From NCBI GenBank assembly GCA_016839265.1, contig JAEOUO010000003.1, forward strand, positions 1-32,000: a stretch of DNA of 32,000 nt, in the 5' to 3' direction. The position numbers and the translations under genes are program-made. The notes beneath the pieces were generated by a model. The model worked only from the letters and a program-made list of their open reading frames with translations. It did no database searches and had not been told where the DNA came from. Source of the stretch: Candidatus Odinarchaeota archaeon. GTDB taxonomy: Archaea > Asgardarchaeota > Odinarchaeia > Odinarchaeales > Odinarchaeaceae. Shown here piece after piece: positions 1-22,382 of the stretch; within the stretch, counting starts at the first letter, position 1; each line of letters starts with the position of its first letter.

Positions 1-127
1 TGTTTCCGGTTGTTATCATGACTTTGAACATTAAATAGAGTTCTTTTGTGAATTTTTCGGCGATTTGGAGGCATTCTAGGGCTTGTTCTCTGCTTAAATA
101 TTTTGGTATTGTTTTATGCCGGCGCAC
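1..127 (-). CDS. 5' end of a probable tyrosine recombinase/integrase (runs off the window; not in ORF track)
   Basis: Reverse strand from GTG at 127 (GGTGGT RBS just upstream) reads MRRHKTIPKYLSREQALECLQIAEKFTKELYLMFKVMITTGN plus one base A (compatible with an AGR Arg codon). This matches the P-x-Y-L-[ST]...helix...TG-x-R start of the tyrosine recombinase catalytic domain. Confidence 0.65.
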   Translation of the reverse strand, partial: MRRHKTIPKYLSREQALECLQIAEKFTKELYLMFKVMITTGN

Positions 128-608: not shown

Positions 609-1526
609 ATGCAGGAAACCCCGCTTATCATATTCACTACCAGTTTAGCTAATGCAACACTATGGTTGACGGCAGCCAGTTATATATATTATAAAAACCA
701 TAAAAGAATAAACCCGTTGGCTGAAAGCTTCCTCATATTATGCTTAACATTAACAGTTTCTCTACCGTTAGCAACCATAGAAGTATATTATCCGAAAGGC
801 ATAGTTTTCGCCACCGCCAACCTAATTTACACAATACTAATCGCAGCAGGCATCCTAGTTTTAATAAACGGTTTAATCAAAATATATTATTCTAATATTA
901 ATGTGAAACATGTAATAATAACAGCAGCGGCTATAGTAGTCTTATTAAAATTCTATAATTACCTTGACTGGGTAATATTAGATTTACCGGTCGCTGATCA
1001 GGTTAGCTTAACAGTAGATATATTAGTCTTATCTATAATAATCGCCGTTATCCCAGTCAGCTTAAAAGCTCATAGAAAAGTGCGCTCCAATATCCTTAAA
1101 GCGAAGCTTGAACTGCTGATAGCCGCGATCATATTCATGTTAACAGCTGTGGTAATAATAGTGACACCCGGTAATCCGCTTTACAACTACCGGTTCATAA
1201 TCGGCATAAGCCTCCTCATCCCGTTTACTATCCTAGGAGTAGCCTCAGTAACATACCGACATAAAGAAACACTCCAATTAACCATAGTAACACAGAAAAA
1301 CACTGAAGAGAATAAATTCGAGCAAAAAGTAGCGGCGCTGCTATTAAAACACACCTCTAAAGAAGGATCTTGCGAGTATTATGATCCTAATTTGAAATCT
1401 AAGTGTAAACTAGACCCGTCCAGTTACAGGCTTGAAGACTGTAAAGGATTAAAATATAGAAACGGATTCATATGCCCGAAAATACTAAGACAGGAACAAG
1501 AACAAGATAGTTTTTTTAAAAAATAA
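609..1526 (+). CDS. uncharacterised 7-TM membrane protein with C-terminal Cys4 domain (paralog 1)
   Basis: About seven hydrophobic segments, then a soluble tail with C-x10-C-x11-C-x10-C. Confidence 0.85.
   Translation: MQETPLIIFTTSLANATLWLTAASYIYYKNHKRINPLAESFLILCLTLTVSLPLATIEVYYPKGIVFATANLIYTILIAAGILVLINGLIKIYYSNINVKHVIITAAAIVVLLKFYNYLDWVILDLPVADQVSLTVDILVLSIIIAVIPVSLKAHRKVRSNILKAKLELLIAAIIFMLTAVVIIVTPGNPLYNYRFIIGISLLIPFTILGVASVTYRHKETLQLTIVTQKNTEENKFEQKVAALLLKHTSKEGSCEYYDPNLKSKCKLDPSSYRLEDCKGLKYRNGFICPKILRQEQEQDSFFKK
1346..1497 (+). repeat. 152-bp perfect direct repeat, copy 1
   Basis: Base-by-base identical to 2337-2488 (offset 991 bp); encodes the 50 aa KHTSKEGSC...CPKILRQE. Confidence 0.97.
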
Positions 1527-1570
1527 ATTTACGCTAAAAAATTTTTATATATTAAAAACTCTGATTAGAC

Positions 1571-1588
1571 GATTAAAAAATTTTAATC
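1571..1588. promoter_or_regulatory. probable own promoter/operator of paralog 2
   Basis: TTTATATA at ~1544-1551, inverted repeat GATTAAAA-aa-TTTTAATC, then GGTGG RBS before ATG 1603. Confidence 0.35.
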
Positions 1589-1602
1589 ATAGGTGGCATT
1601 AT

Positions 1603-2508
1603 ATGCTACAATCTGAGCCTCTAATATTATTGTTAGGTATTATAGCAGCAACACCCTGGATCGCCACCATTATACTATTACGTAAAAGAAGCTGCAAAAA
1701 AATAGATCCGTTCACTAACGGCTACATCATCGCAGCGTTCCTTTTCACAACGACCATAATTTTAAGCTCACTTCAAAGCTTACCGGTAACAAGCTTTATA
1801 GAAGCGTATATAAGCTTATCTTATACAGTTTCATATCTTGGAGGAGTCACATCAATACTATATGTTTTATTAAAAGTATACTATCCTAGAAAACTTAACC
1901 AGCAAATTCTTTTAACAGTTTCAACACTCGCCTTACTAACTAAAATATACGATCACATAGATTGGGCGGTTACCCCGGTCCCGTATCCTGAAGAGGTTTT
2001 AACAATATCACATACTCTAATAGTGTTATTAACGGTCAGCTGGATTATTTTAACAGTTAAAGCTTACAGAATAGTGAAAATAGAAATATTAAAAACCAGG
2101 CTTAAACTTCTAGCATTCGCGGCAATTCTCATATTAATAGAAGTATTGATAATAGTGGTGCCTGGAACCCCCTTATACGATTACTGGTGGCTTACAGGTG
2201 CTATATTAGTAACACCGTTCTCAATTCTAGGCGCTTTAGCGGTAACATATAAACATGAATATTTAGATAAGCTTATAGGCTTAGAAACCGGCGGCATAAA
2301 AGGAACAAGAGAAGAGAAAACGATCGCTATTTTAACAAAACACACCTCTAAAGAAGGATCTTGCGAGTATTATGATCCTAATTTGAAATCTAAGTGTAAA
2401 CTAGACCCGTCCAGTTACAGGCTTGAAGACTGTAAAGGATTAAAATATAGAAACGGATTCATATGCCCGAAAATACTAAGACAGGAACGGAAGCAGCAGG
2501 ACGCTTAA
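1603..2508 (+). CDS. uncharacterised 7-TM membrane protein with C-terminal Cys4 domain (paralog 2)
   Basis: Same hydrophobic pattern as paralog 1, with shared motifs LxKxYY, KxYxxxDW, IIVxPGxPLYxY, PFxILG and VTYxH. Confidence 0.85.
   Translation: MLQSEPLILLLGIIAATPWIATIILLRKRSCKKIDPFTNGYIIAAFLFTTTIILSSLQSLPVTSFIEAYISLSYTVSYLGGVTSILYVLLKVYYPRKLNQQILLTVSTLALLTKIYDHIDWAVTPVPYPEEVLTISHTLIVLLTVSWIILTVKAYRIVKIEILKTRLKLLAFAAILILIEVLIIVVPGTPLYDYWWLTGAILVTPFSILGALAVTYKHEYLDKLIGLETGGIKGTREEKTIAILTKHTSKEGSCEYYDPNLKSKCKLDPSSYRLEDCKGLKYRNGFICPKILRQERKQQDA
2337..2488 (+). repeat. 152-bp perfect direct repeat, copy 2
   Basis: Identical to 1346-1497. Confidence 0.97.
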
Positions 2509-2643: not shown

Positions 2644-2993
2644 TTATTCTATTCCAAGTCTGGAAGTTAATTTAACCATCAGAAAGATTACAGACGCCAC
2701 TATAATGAATGTTATTAAAGTACTTAAGAAGAGTCTAATGTGAAGGGTGCGATACTTCAGGACTCCCAGCCAATTCCAGACGGTAGAATAAAGTTTACAA
2801 GAGGGAGAATAAACGAATTTACAAGCGCCTGAATAAGGTTACCTAAATAAATAGTCAGGATGAAGGCGACAGCTAACCCTATAATCTTATATTTAGCTAT
2901 GAACATTTTGAATTCTTCTAAAAAATTCTTCGGTTTAGGTTCAAGAATAGCTCTTATCTTTTTCAACTCTTCTAAAATTTCATTATTCGACAT
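2644..2993 (-). pseudogene. mscL: large-conductance mechanosensitive channel MscL, interrupted
   Basis: N-part FLEEFKMFIAKYKIIGLAVAFIL...LVNSFILP is the MscL S1/TM1 signature. After TGA at 2757-2759 the frame continues SIAPFTL; a frameshift at ~2734 gives TM2-like LFLSTLITFIIVASVIFLMVKLTSRLGIE* ending at 2644. Confidence 0.8.
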
Positions 2994-3101: not shown

Positions 3102-5699
3102 GTGATAGTTTTGACAGCGATAGCTAATAGGCTCAGATTCAGAAATAAACAGTTCAGCGGAGACGTTAACCCCCAGCAGTTAATAGAGTTAGATAAACTG
3201 TTATCGGAGCCGATTGAAAAAGTATACTATTATTTGAATACATCTGAAGAAGGGTTCAGCTCAGAGAACGCGGAGGCTTTAATCGACATCTACGGTTACA
3301 ATGAGTTAACAGGTAAAAAAAGAAAGATAAGCTTACTACAGTTTCTGGAACATTTCAAAAACCCGATTCTACTAATATTATTGGTTGCCGGGTTAATCTC
3401 CATCTTCTTTAATGAGTTAATTAACGCGATAATAATATTCACAATTATCGGGGTAAGCGTGGTTTTAGACTATTACCAGGAGGCTAAAGCTGATAAAGCC
3501 GCAGCTCTCCTGAAACAGAAAGTCACAACCACAGCCACTTTGTTGCGGGATGGTGTTAAAAAAGAGGTTAAAATATCAGAAATCATACCAGGAGACATAA
3601 TATATCTATCCGCAGGTGATATGATACCGGCTGATAGCCGAATTATATTCGCTAAAGACTTCTTTGTAAACCAGTCTGCTTTAACCGGGGAATCAGCCCC
3701 CGTAGAGAAGAAACCCATCATAGAAAAATCTTATATAAATATTACCGAGTACAGTAACGCTGTTTTTCTAGGCACATCCGTGGTAAGCGGTGCAGCTATC
3801 GCGGTCGCTCTTAAAACAGGGCCTTTCACAGTTTACGGTAGAATAGCAAGCAGACTAGCCAGTAAACCCCCTGAAACAGAATATCAGAAAGGTTTAAGAC
3901 GATTCGGATACTTGTTATTACAAGTCACATTCACTTTAATCATCTTCGTGTTTTTCGTAAACGCGCTTATCCGCGGCGAAATATTAGATTCTCTCATATT
4001 CGCTGTAGCGTTAGCGGTTGGTTTAACCCCTGATCTTCTACCTATGATTCTCTCAGTTAATCTCTCCAGCGGAGCTATTCAAATGGCTAAAAAAGGTGTA
4101 ATAGTGAAGAGGCTGTCTGCAATACAAAACTTTGGAAGCATGAATGTTTTATGTTCTGATAAAACCGGTACACTAACCGAGAATAAAATAGTTTTAGTTA
4201 AACACATCGATGTAAACGGTCAAGATGATGAAAAAGTCTTATTATACTCTTATCTTAACAGTTACTATCAAACCGGTCTAAAAAGCCCTCTAGATGAAGC
4301 TATTTTAAAACACCGTGAATTGAAAATAAAAGACTATAAGAAGATAGATGAAATACCATTCGACTTCAATAGAAAACGTATCACGATAGTAATTGAACAG
4401 GCGGGTGAACGTATACTCATATCGAAAGGAGCCCCTGAAGAAATACATAAAATATGTTCAAGTATAGAAGAGCACGGGGAAGTAAAATCTCTAAATGAAG
4501 AATTAGAAAAGAGAATTACAGAAAGATTCATAGAGTTAAGTGAAGAAGGGTTTAGAGTTTTAAGCGTATGTTATAGAAAAGACTACTCTAATAAAACAGT
4601 GTACGATATTACAGATGAAAAAGAAATGGTTTTCTTAGGATTCGTCGCCTTTATAGATCCGCCTAAAGAGAGTGTGAAAGAATCAATAAAACTGTTAAAA
4701 GAAGCGGGAATCGAACTTAAAATATTAACCGGTGACAATGAGCTTGTTACACGGAAAATATGCGAGTATATTGGATTAGAGATTAAAGGAGTAGTTTTAG
4801 GTGAACGCGTCAGTGAAGCTGACGGAGCCGCCTTAGCTAGAATAGTAGAGGAAAACAATATTTTCTGCAGAGTGACCCCCGCGGATAAAGAGAGAATAAT
4901 CGATACACTTAAAGAAAACGGTCATGTAGTAGGATTTCTAGGAGATGGAATAAATGATGCGCCTTCACTTCGAACAGCGGATGTAGGTATCTCAGTGGAT
5001 AATGCTGTAGATATCGCTAAAGAATCCGCTGACATAATATTATTAGAGAAAAAACTACGCGTATTACATGACGGTGTGATTGAAGGCCGGAAAACTTTCA
5101 CAAACACGTTAAAATATATTGCAATCGGCGTCAGCTCTAACTTCGGTAACATGTTCAGCGTAGCCGGCGCCTCATTCTTTCTACCCTTTCTCCCCATGCA
5201 ACCAGGTCAAATATTATTAAATAATTTATTATATGATGCTGCTCAAATACCTTTACCTACTGATAGCGTTGATAAAGAGTTCATTGAACAACCTAGAAGA
5301 TGGGATATGACTCAGATTCGTAACGCAATGTTCTATTTCGGACCGATCAGCTCCATATTCGATTACATAACATTCTTTGTAATGTTATACTTCTTCCACG
5401 CTACACCGGCACTCTTTCAAACAGCCTGGTTCACAGAATCCTTGATAACACAACTGTTAGTTGTTTATTTTATTAGAACAAGCCGACCATTCTATAAAAG
5501 CCGGCCTAGTAAATCTCTACTAATCTCCGGGTTAATTACATTAACGGTTGCCTTAATATTACCGTACACGATCATAGGAGAAATATTCGGTTTCACTGTT
5601 CCCCCCCCAATATTCTATTTAGCTTTAACGTTAATAGTGGCAGCTTATCTTATACTCGTGGAAATAGCTAAGAGAAAATTCTATAAAATATACAGGTAA
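3102..5699 (+). CDS. mgtA: magnesium-translocating P-type ATPase (P3B)
   Basis: TGES, PDLLP, DKTGT, KGAPEE, GDGIND motifs and the MgtA-typical SSNFGN...QILLNNLLYD; the true start may be TTG 3111. Confidence 0.9.
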   Translation: MIVLTAIANRLRFRNKQFSGDVNPQQLIELDKLLSEPIEKVYYYLNTSEEGFSSENAEALIDIYGYNELTGKKRKISLLQFLEHFKNPILLILLVAGLISIFFNELINAIIIFTIIGVSVVLDYYQEAKADKAAALLKQKVTTTATLLRDGVKKEVKISEIIPGDIIYLSAGDMIPADSRIIFAKDFFVNQSALTGESAPVEKKPIIEKSYINITEYSNAVFLGTSVVSGAAIAVALKTGPFTVYGRIASRLASKPPETEYQKGLRRFGYLLLQVTFTLIIFVFFVNALIRGEILDSLIFAVALAVGLTPDLLPMILSVNLSSGAIQMAKKGVIVKRLSAIQNFGSMNVLCSDKTGTLTENKIVLVKHIDVNGQDDEKVLLYSYLNSYYQTGLKSPLDEAILKHRELKIKDYKKIDEIPFDFNRKRITIVIEQAGERILISKGAPEEIHKICSSIEEHGEVKSLNEELEKRITERFIELSEEGFRVLSVCYRKDYSNKTVYDITDEKEMVFLGFVAFIDPPKESVKESIKLLKEAGIELKILTGDNELVTRKICEYIGLEIKGVVLGERVSEADGAALARIVEENNIFCRVTPADKERIIDTLKENGHVVGFLGDGINDAPSLRTADVGISVDNAVDIAKESADIILLEKKLRVLHDGVIEGRKTFTNTLKYIAIGVSSNFGNMFSVAGASFFLPFLPMQPGQILLNNLLYDAAQIPLPTDSVDKEFIEQPRRWDMTQIRNAMFYFGPISSIFDYITFFVMLYFFHATPALFQTAWFTESLITQLLVVYFIRTSRPFYKSRPSKSLLISGLITLTVALILPYTIIGEIFGFTVPPPIFYLALTLIVAAYLILVEIAKRKFYKIYR

Positions 5700-21032: not shown

Positions 21033-22382
21033 TCAACCGCAGCTTACTCGACTTATACTTTCACCTAACCCTAAAAATAACAGTAAACCTGCAACCACTA
21101 TAGTAAACTGTATTAAAATAATTAACGGATCGAAAGAGAACAGTAAAAGCAAGCATACAACAGCTCCTAAAACCGCGGTGACAGGCATCCACTTAATATT
21201 TAAACCTATTTTAAACGGTCTATCAGCGTCAGGAACCCTTCTGCGAAGCAAGATCACGCTTAAATTAACAAATAAGAAAACGATTAAAATCCCGTAAACC
21301 GTCGCATTCGCCACTAAACTAATATCCCCTAACAATAACATTAAAAGACTCATAATCATAGCGAATAAAACCGCTAAAGTAGGAGTACCAGTCCGCTTAG
21401 AAACCCTGCATAAAGGCGCCGGTAACGCTCTATCCCTAGCCATCCCGTAAACCAGTCTAGAAGAAGTAACTAAAACAATTAAAACAGTGTTCGCCGTCGC
21501 GAATAAAGCGATAAAAGACATTAAAACACCTCCAACAGGCCCAAGCACAGTTAAAACCACAGTTTTCAAAGGTGCAGGTGAAGCCGCTATAACATTATAA
21601 GGGAGAATACTCACAACGCTAACCGCCACCAAGCAGTAAATCACAGCCGTAATCAAAATCGAGAAAATAATCGCTTTCGGCACACTCCTCGTCGCATCAA
21701 CCCCCTCCTCTGCAAGATTAGCCACAGCTTCAAAACCTAAATACGCGAAGAAAACCAGGTTAACCGTAGATAAAATATTCATTAAACCGCCACCAGCAGG
21801 CAGCTCAAAGTAATTCACAGAGCCCAGAAAAGGCACACCAATAAAAATAATCAAAAACAAGCCCCCGGCTTCAATCAACGTGAAAACAACATTCATCCAA
21901 GTAGACTCCCTAATCCCAATATAATTCACAACACTCACAACTATAATGAGAGCGGCCGCGAAAAACACAGAAACCCCCCACTCGGATAACCCTAATAAAA
22001 CAGAAAGATAACCCCCGAAACCTAAAGCCACCGTAGCCGCTGAAAACAAACCGGAGAAAACCACAATCCAACCAAGTATAAAAGATAAAGCCCTTATTTT
22101 AAAAGCTCTATCCACGTAAACAAAAGAAGCCGCGCTCTGAGGATACATAGATGAAAGCTCAGCGTAAGATAAACCCGTCAACAACCCGATGAAAGCAGTC
22201 AACAGAAAAGGAAGCCAAGCCATATTACCCGCTAAACCAACCACAGACCCAATAAGAGCGTAAACACCAGCCCCGAGAATATTACCAACACCGTAAAAAA
22301 TCAAACCAACCAGTGAAACACGCCGCTTCAAACCCCCACCGCTAACCGACATAAAACCAGCCTCAAACACCAGCGGACTCAA
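21033..22382 (-). CDS. APC-family amino acid permease
   Basis: GNILGAGVY, YAELSS, FFAYLGFE-x-x-ANLAEE, SRL-x-YGMARD. Confidence 0.92.
   Translation of the reverse strand: MSPLVFEAGFMSVSGGGLKRRVSLVGLIFYGVGNILGAGVYALIGSVVGLAGNMAWLPFLLTAFIGLLTGLSYAELSSMYPQSAASFVYVDRAFKIRALSFILGWIVVFSGLFSAATVALGFGGYLSVLLGLSEWGVSVFFAAALIIVVSVVNYIGIRESTWMNVVFTLIEAGGLFLIIFIGVPFLGSVNYFELPAGGGLMNILSTVNLVFFAYLGFEAVANLAEEGVDATRSVPKAIIFSILITAVIYCLVAVSVVSILPYNVIAASPAPLKTVVLTVLGPVGGVLMSFIALFATANTVLIVLVTSSRLVYGMARDRALPAPLCRVSKRTGTPTLAVLFAMIMSLLMLLLGDISLVANATVYGILIVFLFVNLSVILLRRRVPDADRPFKIGLNIKWMPVTAVLGAVVCLLLLFSFDPLIILIQFTIVVAGLLLFLGLGESISRVSCG

Follow-up and report, generated by a model that had tools for sequence, protein, structure and literature searches.

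How do two membrane protein genes that have diverged along most of their length come to share 152 consecutive identical nucleotides? The question is raised by a tandem gene pair in the window, the 32,000-nucleotide stretch of DNA analyzed here, which lies at the start of contig C3 (JAEOUO010000003.1) in Candidatus Odinarchaeota archaeon assembly GCA_016839265.1. This genome (G000) consists of 1.35 Mb in 6 contigs and is 97% complete. Gene A (P0001; 609..1526, + strand) encodes a 305-amino acid (aa) protein with a seven-helix membrane module (aa 5-215), a linker, and a predicted cytoplasmic tail that contains four cysteines (the Cys4 tail). The gene is defined by its open reading frame (ORF), its homologs, an AlphaFold2 (AF2) model, its predicted topology, and its position in the A clade of a membrane-part tree, and its ortholog is OdinLCB4_007110. 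Gene B (P0002; 1603..2508, + strand) encodes 301 aa and is a tandem paralog with the architecture of gene A. It is defined by its ORF, its homologs, and its position in the B clade (100/100 support), and its ortholog is OdinLCB4_007115. The identical segment lies in the tails of both proteins, and it is probably the product of a recent ectopic gene conversion between the tandem paralogs.

Two diverged genes share an identical cysteine core

A repeat search and pairwise DNA alignment were used to define the extent of the identity. Positions 1346-1497 and 2337-2488 of the window match at 152/152 nucleotides (nt) in the assembly. Both copies of this tract are on the + strand; the first corresponds to codons 247-296 of gene A and covers its Cys core, and the second corresponds to codons 246-295 of gene B. 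The motif within the tract of both genes is C-x10-C-x11-C-x10-C. DNA identity outside the tract is ~50% on both flanks, and the final 9 residues of gene A differ from the final 6 residues of gene B. The two proteins are 42% identical overall, 29% identical over the membrane part, and 100% identical over the 50 codons of the tract.

A codon-wise comparison separates the tract from the rest of the genes. The membrane part (232 codons) has 29% aa identity, a proportion of differing synonymous sites (pS) of 0.65, and a nonsynonymous divergence (dN) of 0.71. The tract (50 codons, ~29 synonymous sites) has 100% aa identity with pS = 0.00 and dN = 0.00, and synonymous divergence (dS) between the two copies is 0. 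Sliding windows give pS values of 0.35-0.95 along the body of the genes and 0.00 within the tract. A preliminary description of this DNA, made from the letters alone, had reported a 152-bp identity that includes synonymous sites, diverged membrane parts, the cysteine motif, and different last 9 and 6 residues. The comparison agrees with each of these observations: 0 of ~29 synonymous sites differ, the membrane parts are 29% identical, and dS = 0 in the tract stands against pS = 0.65 in the body.

The genome is nearly free of repeats by self-BLAST. Contigs C3 and C6 overlap by exactly 77 nt, as do C5 and C6, and C1 and C4 overlap by 119 nt. With the 77-nt contig-end overlaps set aside, the tract is the longest 100% repeat in the 1.35-Mb genome. 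The copy count proposed in the preliminary description was carried out with genome-wide sequence and profile searches, and the tract occurs in 2 copies only.

The duplication is old and the identity is recent

A whole-protein homolog search of 5.8 billion proteins found six full-length relatives of the pair, all from Odinarchaeia. OdinLCB4_007110 and OdinLCB4_007115, both from Candidatus Odinarchaeum yellowstonii, are the nearest of these. The same search found no Logan-derived fragments that could be used as independent assemblies. Three genomes of the same genus as G000 were compared: the closed genome of Ca. Odinarchaeum yellowstonii LCB_4 (G001) and two draft genomes (G002 and G003). A maximum likelihood tree of the membrane parts places the A sequences (G000 with G002, G001, and G003) in a clade apart from the B sequences (G000 and G001; 100/100 support). 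Both clades span genomes, which indicates that the duplication predates the genus. The flanks thus group by ortholog in the body tree, and the tract groups by genome through its identity within G000.

The tails in the closed relative are not identical. The A and B tails of G001 share 76-79% of their nucleotides and 74% of their residues, with pS = 0.59 and dN = 0.14, and by this comparison they are under strong purifying selection with ordinary synonymous divergence and no homogenization. Orthologous tails (A of G000 with A of G001, B of G000 with B of G001, and A of G000 with A of G003) have pS values of 0.69-0.76. The G000 tract has 73-74% nt identity to either G001 tail. Normally diverged tails in the orthologs of related genomes, the outcome that the preliminary description had named as speaking against its reading, are found in closed G001. 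The G000 identity is thus a recent, lineage-specific feature rather than a conserved homogenized state. We calculated chance expectations by our own arithmetic from the codon-wise comparison with the tail of the closed relative as the null. The chance of 152 identical bases is ~1e-16 at a nt identity of 0.787, and the chance of 29 identical synonymous sites is ~5e-12 at pS = 0.59.

The draft genomes show two further states of the locus. G003 has one gene with an A body in the B position, beside MscL and mgtA. In G002, contig breaks fall immediately ahead of the tail and within it, and the B body is unassembled. Both states are consistent with tail-to-tail recombination or a tail repeat.

Probable conversion of the cysteine core recurs among tandem pairs

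A tail-profile scan of 400 Asgard genomes, together with further Odinarchaeia contigs that were traced, yielded six tandem pairs. Three are from the genus Odinarchaeum or other Odinarchaeia and have diverged tails: the G001 pair described above, a pair on Odinarchaeia contig L039 with 70% tail DNA identity, and a pair on Odinarchaeia contig L040 with 71%. A pair from another Asgard family (G007) has 67% tail DNA identity. The G000 pair, at 152/152 nt, is joined by a pair from another Asgard family (G049:C266) in which 107/108 nt are identical over the same Cys core. This second tract (locus L032, 1-2029) is 108 nt long with one mismatch, and its pS is 0.07 compared to 0.35-0.90 elsewhere in the pair. 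The second G049 copy (P0051) has a tyrosine in place of the first cysteine, directly upstream of the tract. Tracts in two of the six pairs and diverged tails in the other four indicate that conversion of the Cys core is recurrent but sporadic. A sporadic pattern is expected if the most conserved segment alone is similar enough for homologous recombination.

Origin of the identity

The dS of 0 inside flanks that are saturated makes recent conversion or recombination the best reading of the data, as the preliminary description had proposed. The mechanism would start with an old tandem duplication, before the genus arose, that gave two seven-transmembrane (7-TM) proteins in which the cytoplasmic Cys4 tail (~70 aa) is the sole well-conserved part. 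A recent non-reciprocal homologous recombination in the G000 lineage would then have replaced 152 nt of one tail with the sequence of the other. The limitation of the tract to the Cys core would follow from purifying selection, which in this stretch alone keeps the DNA similar enough (~75-80% in relatives) for recombination to be initiated and resolved, and the diverged flanks would halt conversion. Conversion would be a mechanistic by-product of tandem paralogy that does not need selection.

Several observations weigh against gene conversion or limit what can be said about it. The locus lies 600 nt from the contig end. The repeat length of 152 nt is 2 x 76 and the contig-end overlaps are 77 nt, which could be a coincidence or an assembly-graph effect. 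Exact-pattern scans of Joint Genome Institute (JGI) metagenome contigs found neither the core of the tract nor the junction between the B body and the tract. The G002 and G003 states can also be assembly effects. The G000 tail is 80% protein-identical to the A tail of G001 and 74% to the B tail, and over 50 residues these values favor neither A to B nor B to A as the direction of conversion. Sampling of 31-mers from positions 300-2800 showed that 95-98% are held by six oil-field/hydrocarbon metagenome runs from three studies; this demonstrates only that the DNA is present, and the assembly may itself derive from some of these runs.

An assembly or polishing artifact would account for the identity if the real tails were similar and had been made identical in the metagenome-assembled genome (MAG) by bubble collapse or consensus polishing. 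Overlaps of 77 nt at the ends of the 6 contigs point to a k=77 graph assembler, the 152-nt repeat exceeds k and is about one short-read length, and the locus is close to the contig start. However, copies at the 70-79% identity of the relatives share no k-mers and cannot collapse. Since collapse needs shared k-mers, an artifact could only raise an identity of ~97-99% to 100%, and recent conversion would still be required. The tandem order is set by unique junctions and agrees with the synteny of closed G001, and another 129-nt repeat in the same assembly retains a mismatch. We consider an artifact unlikely.

Selection offers a different cause, in which the tails are kept identical to fit one common cytoplasmic partner or to pair together. 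Independent tracts over the same Cys core in two lineages (G000 and G049) are in line with this idea, and constraint on the tail far exceeds that on the rest of the proteins, with dN = 0.14 compared to ~0.7 in the body. Identity is nevertheless not required, since four of the six tandem pairs, including the one in the closed genome of the same genus, have tails with 67-79% DNA identity and ~74% protein identity, and conversion would be expected to stay within the most similar segment even if selection played no part. The suggestion in the preliminary description that tails are kept homogenized for a common partner is therefore not supported: the G001 tails match at 79% of nucleotides and 74% of residues at pS = 0.59, and the two other Odinarchaeia pairs are at ~70% DNA identity. 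The diverged tails of these three pairs show that homogenization is sporadic and recent, not maintained, and we regard selected homogenization as improbable.

Site-specific cassette exchange or shuffling by the adjacent tyrosine recombinase, with the 152-nt repeats as sites, is highly improbable. In G000, G001, and G002, gene A does have a short, divergently oriented Phage_integrase-family gene ~450-480 nt upstream of it, and direct repeats could allow excision, with G003 resembling the excised state. However, G001 has the same recombinase gene without the repeats; the sites of known shufflons are short and inverted, unlike direct coding repeats of 152 nt; the tract has no further copy in the genome; and homologous recombination suffices. 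Least credible is that the 152 nt are held at the nucleotide level as an RNA or regulatory element embedded in both genes, which would fit perfect conservation that includes synonymous sites, but the synonymous sites of this stretch are saturated in comparisons of orthologs and of the two G001 paralogs (pS = 0.59-0.76), so there is no nucleotide-level constraint in the genus.

Gene conversion restricted to one domain of archaeal paralogs has a precedent in mtrA-1/mtrA-2 of Methanococcales and Methanomicrobiales (PMC4632066), and concerted evolution is described in prokaryotes (PMC6053082). The mtrA genes are likewise paralogs at one locus that have different membrane parts and one homogenized soluble domain, with identity that ends at the domain border. 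The G000 tract differs in being only 152 nt long, which is shorter than the domain. It also differs in being a single recent event with diverged tails in the relatives, and thus not long-lasting concerted evolution.

The membrane module resembles 7-TM sensor domains

An AF2 model built with 16 homologs has seven long helices over aa 5-215 at a mean predicted local distance difference test (pLDDT) score of 81, in agreement with the 7-TM architecture proposed in the preliminary description. Lysine and arginine counts for loops 1, 3, and 5 and the tail are 3, 2, 4, and 4, and the counts on the other side of the membrane are 0, 1, 0, and 0. By the positive-inside rule, these counts point to an N-out/C-in topology with the tail in the cytoplasm, which is where the preliminary description had placed its output domain.

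Structure searches for sensor folds were used to find relatives of the bundle, and it resembles 7-TM sensor modules and G protein-coupled receptors (GPCRs). VIA-align superimposes it on class-C GPCR transmembrane domains and designed GPCR-like folds with Z scores of 15-19 and a root-mean-square deviation of 3.3-4.0 A over ~210 residues. Sequence identity to the GPCR-fold matches is 5-10%, and Foldseek E-values are only ~0.02. In the ESM Atlas, template modeling (TM) scores of 0.58-0.62 were obtained with the N-terminal 7-TM modules of histidine kinases (HisKA_7TM), GGDEF/EAL proteins, and HD-GYP proteins, and with an unnamed Promethearchaeota cluster. The membrane parts of ten family members have no Pfam match at E <= 10. 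MASE3 gave a weak full-length match (E = 0.036) that scores 12.8 bits in NCBIfam against a cut-off of 560. Microbial rhodopsin was rejected as a candidate: helix 7 (aa 190-215) has no lysine and so cannot form the retinal Schiff base.

The proteins are most likely receptor-like, with an N-out/C-in seven-helix bundle of the GPCR or 7-TM-sensor fold. The likeness to GPCRs and microbial rhodopsins is one of topology and bundle shape. The bacterial input modules (HisKA_7TM, PF16927, and those of the GGDEF/EAL, HD-GYP, and MASE3 proteins) share the arrangement of a seven-helix bundle followed by a cytoplasmic module. The Odinarchaeia pair differs in that its output is a 70-aa Cys4 domain and not a kinase, cyclase, or phosphodiesterase, and in that its sequences match no Pfam 7-TM family.

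The tail is an undescribed four-cysteine domain

Alignments define a conserved tail domain of ~65-75 aa with an upstream helix of the pattern R-I-x-A-L-L-x-x-Y/H-T-S. The domain begins with an N-terminal helix (D-P-x5-R-I-x-A-L-L-x-x-Y-T-S), continues through an irregular core (C-P-F-Y, S-K-C-x-L-D-P, D-C-x-G, and G-x-x-C), and ends in a C-terminal helix. The full domain of gene A spans 1293..1508 (+), beyond the tract on its 5' side, as defined by a profile match, alignments, and an AF2 domain model (47 sequences) at pLDDT 85. The full domain of gene B spans 2305..2502 (+) and was located by its profile match. The preliminary description held that the identity covers exactly the domain; the Cys core is indeed covered, and the conserved domain itself starts 12-20 residues upstream of the tract.

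No named relatives of the domain were found. Pfam searches with the tail profile and 50 family members, and Pfam and NCBIfam searches with both whole proteins, returned nothing above noise, and the Protein Data Bank (PDB) holds no sequence relatives of the tail. Foldseek found nothing at E < 9, the best VIA-align Z score was 2.8, and ESM Atlas TM scores were <= 0.45. The author of the preliminary description had not recognized the domain, and the absence of a Pfam, PDB, or Atlas match bears this out.

An exhaustive hidden Markov model search of 1.84 billion proteins gave a family of 47 representative clusters. A profile scan detected the tail in 44/400 Asgard genomes from 16/85 genera. Named members are from Asgard archaea (Odin, Hel, Atabeya, and 'Asgard group'), with one labeled 'Euryarchaeota archaeon'. 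The tail is nearly confined to Asgard archaea and the protein family is undescribed. The domain occurs in stand-alone proteins of 78-96 aa, at the N terminus of soluble proteins of 170-190 aa, and at the C terminus of different membrane modules. The neighborhoods of three stand-alone Cys4 proteins (P0013, P0020, and P0011) contain no recurring partner.

The soluble, signal-less members and the topology of the membrane-bound members together suggest a cytoplasmic module that probably binds metal. Metal binding is weakened by a distant subgroup that lacks the third cysteine and by the G049 copy with a tyrosine in place of the first. A complex prediction of two tail copies with zinc gave a score of 0.01, which is no evidence either way.

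Association with magnesium transporter genes

The magnesium-translocating P-type ATPase MgtA is encoded at 3102..5699 (+) and was identified by a TIGR01524 equivalog match of 924 bits (cut-off 611), Pfam, and synteny. mgtA lies downstream of the 7-TM/Cys4 gene or genes in all four genomes of the genus (G000-G003). The two other Odinarchaeia tandem pairs adjoin MgtE (PF01769) and fall in the same well-supported clade of the body tree. One is at 225-3702 of L039/L041 beside an MgtE-family gene, with a DUF134 gene also present in L039, and the other is at 216-2947 of L040 beside an MgtE-family gene.

Adjacency to two non-homologous Mg2+ transporters (MgtA and MgtE) suggests a role connected to Mg2+ and is the best functional lead. 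The proposal that the pair senses or regulates Mg2+, or a linked cue, is tentative and may well prove wrong. The 7-TM/Cys4 genes of two other Asgard families (f2 and f15) have other neighbors, which speaks against the connection. A bolder proposal makes the tandem 7-TM/Cys4 proteins an unrecognized class of Asgard receptors in which a GPCR-like sensor and a new metal- or Fe-S-binding output would respond as a pair to Mg2+, a metal, or a redox signal and regulate MgtA or MgtE, with recurrent conversion reflecting tails that must work together; we consider this improbable.

MgtC of the Salmonella mgtCBR operon is a comparable system, in that a small polytopic membrane protein whose C-terminal domain is cytoplasmic is encoded beside a Mg2+ P-type ATPase gene. 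MgtC differs in helix number and in the tail, and the Odinarchaeia neighbor can be MgtE instead. Membership of the MgtC/SapB family was rejected, as neither genes A and B nor their family members have the Pfam match.

Other features of the locus

The order of the locus across the genus is a short tyrosine-recombinase gene, gene A, gene B, an MscL-like gene in some genomes, and mgtA. The recombinase-family gene is cut by the contig start and retains its N-terminal 42 codons (2..127, - strand). It was assigned by synteny with G001 and G002 and by the match of the G001 ortholog to Phage_integrase (PF00589). In G001 and G002 the gene (~181 aa) likewise lies upstream of gene A in divergent orientation, and it is thus a stable neighbor rather than a sign of recent insertion. 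The spacer between genes A and B (1527..1602, +) reads as an AT-rich TATA-like stretch at ~1543-1553 and, 5 nt ahead of the gene B ATG, a GGTGG motif, which makes separate start signals for gene B probable.

A broken MscL-like gene lies at 2650..2993 (-) and was recognized by a PF01741 match to its 77-aa N-terminal ORF and by three-frame reading. A premature in-frame stop occurs where the G003 ortholog has a tryptophan, a frameshift follows, and the C-terminal helix runs on in another frame. The gene is intact in G003 (125 aa) and is missing from this position in G001 and G002.

A segment of the window at 21-23 kb has an extreme GC/AT skew that is probably compositional, and within it 21033-22382 (-) encodes a very hydrophobic polytopic membrane protein that is amino-acid-permease-like. 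Outside the window, a long array of ~66-nt-period repeats resembling a CRISPR array lies at a contig end of G000 (C2:152025-154571).

Implications

Nucleotide identity of this kind is the textbook signature of recent conversion, and it cautions that domain trees of the 7-TM/Cys4 family can mislead. The new results are that the tract can be dated, that a second tract arose independently in another Asgard family, that the membrane module has a predicted GPCR-like fold and topology, that no fold relative of the tail was found, and that MgtE neighborhoods exist. The more useful result is the protein family itself, an Asgard-restricted, confidently foldable ~70-aa Cys4 domain carried on a GPCR-like bundle. 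Direct metal analysis and structure determination are feasible on a tail of this size, and the findings provide a concrete hypothesis, open to testing, for an orphan family among the prokaryotes most closely related to eukaryotes.

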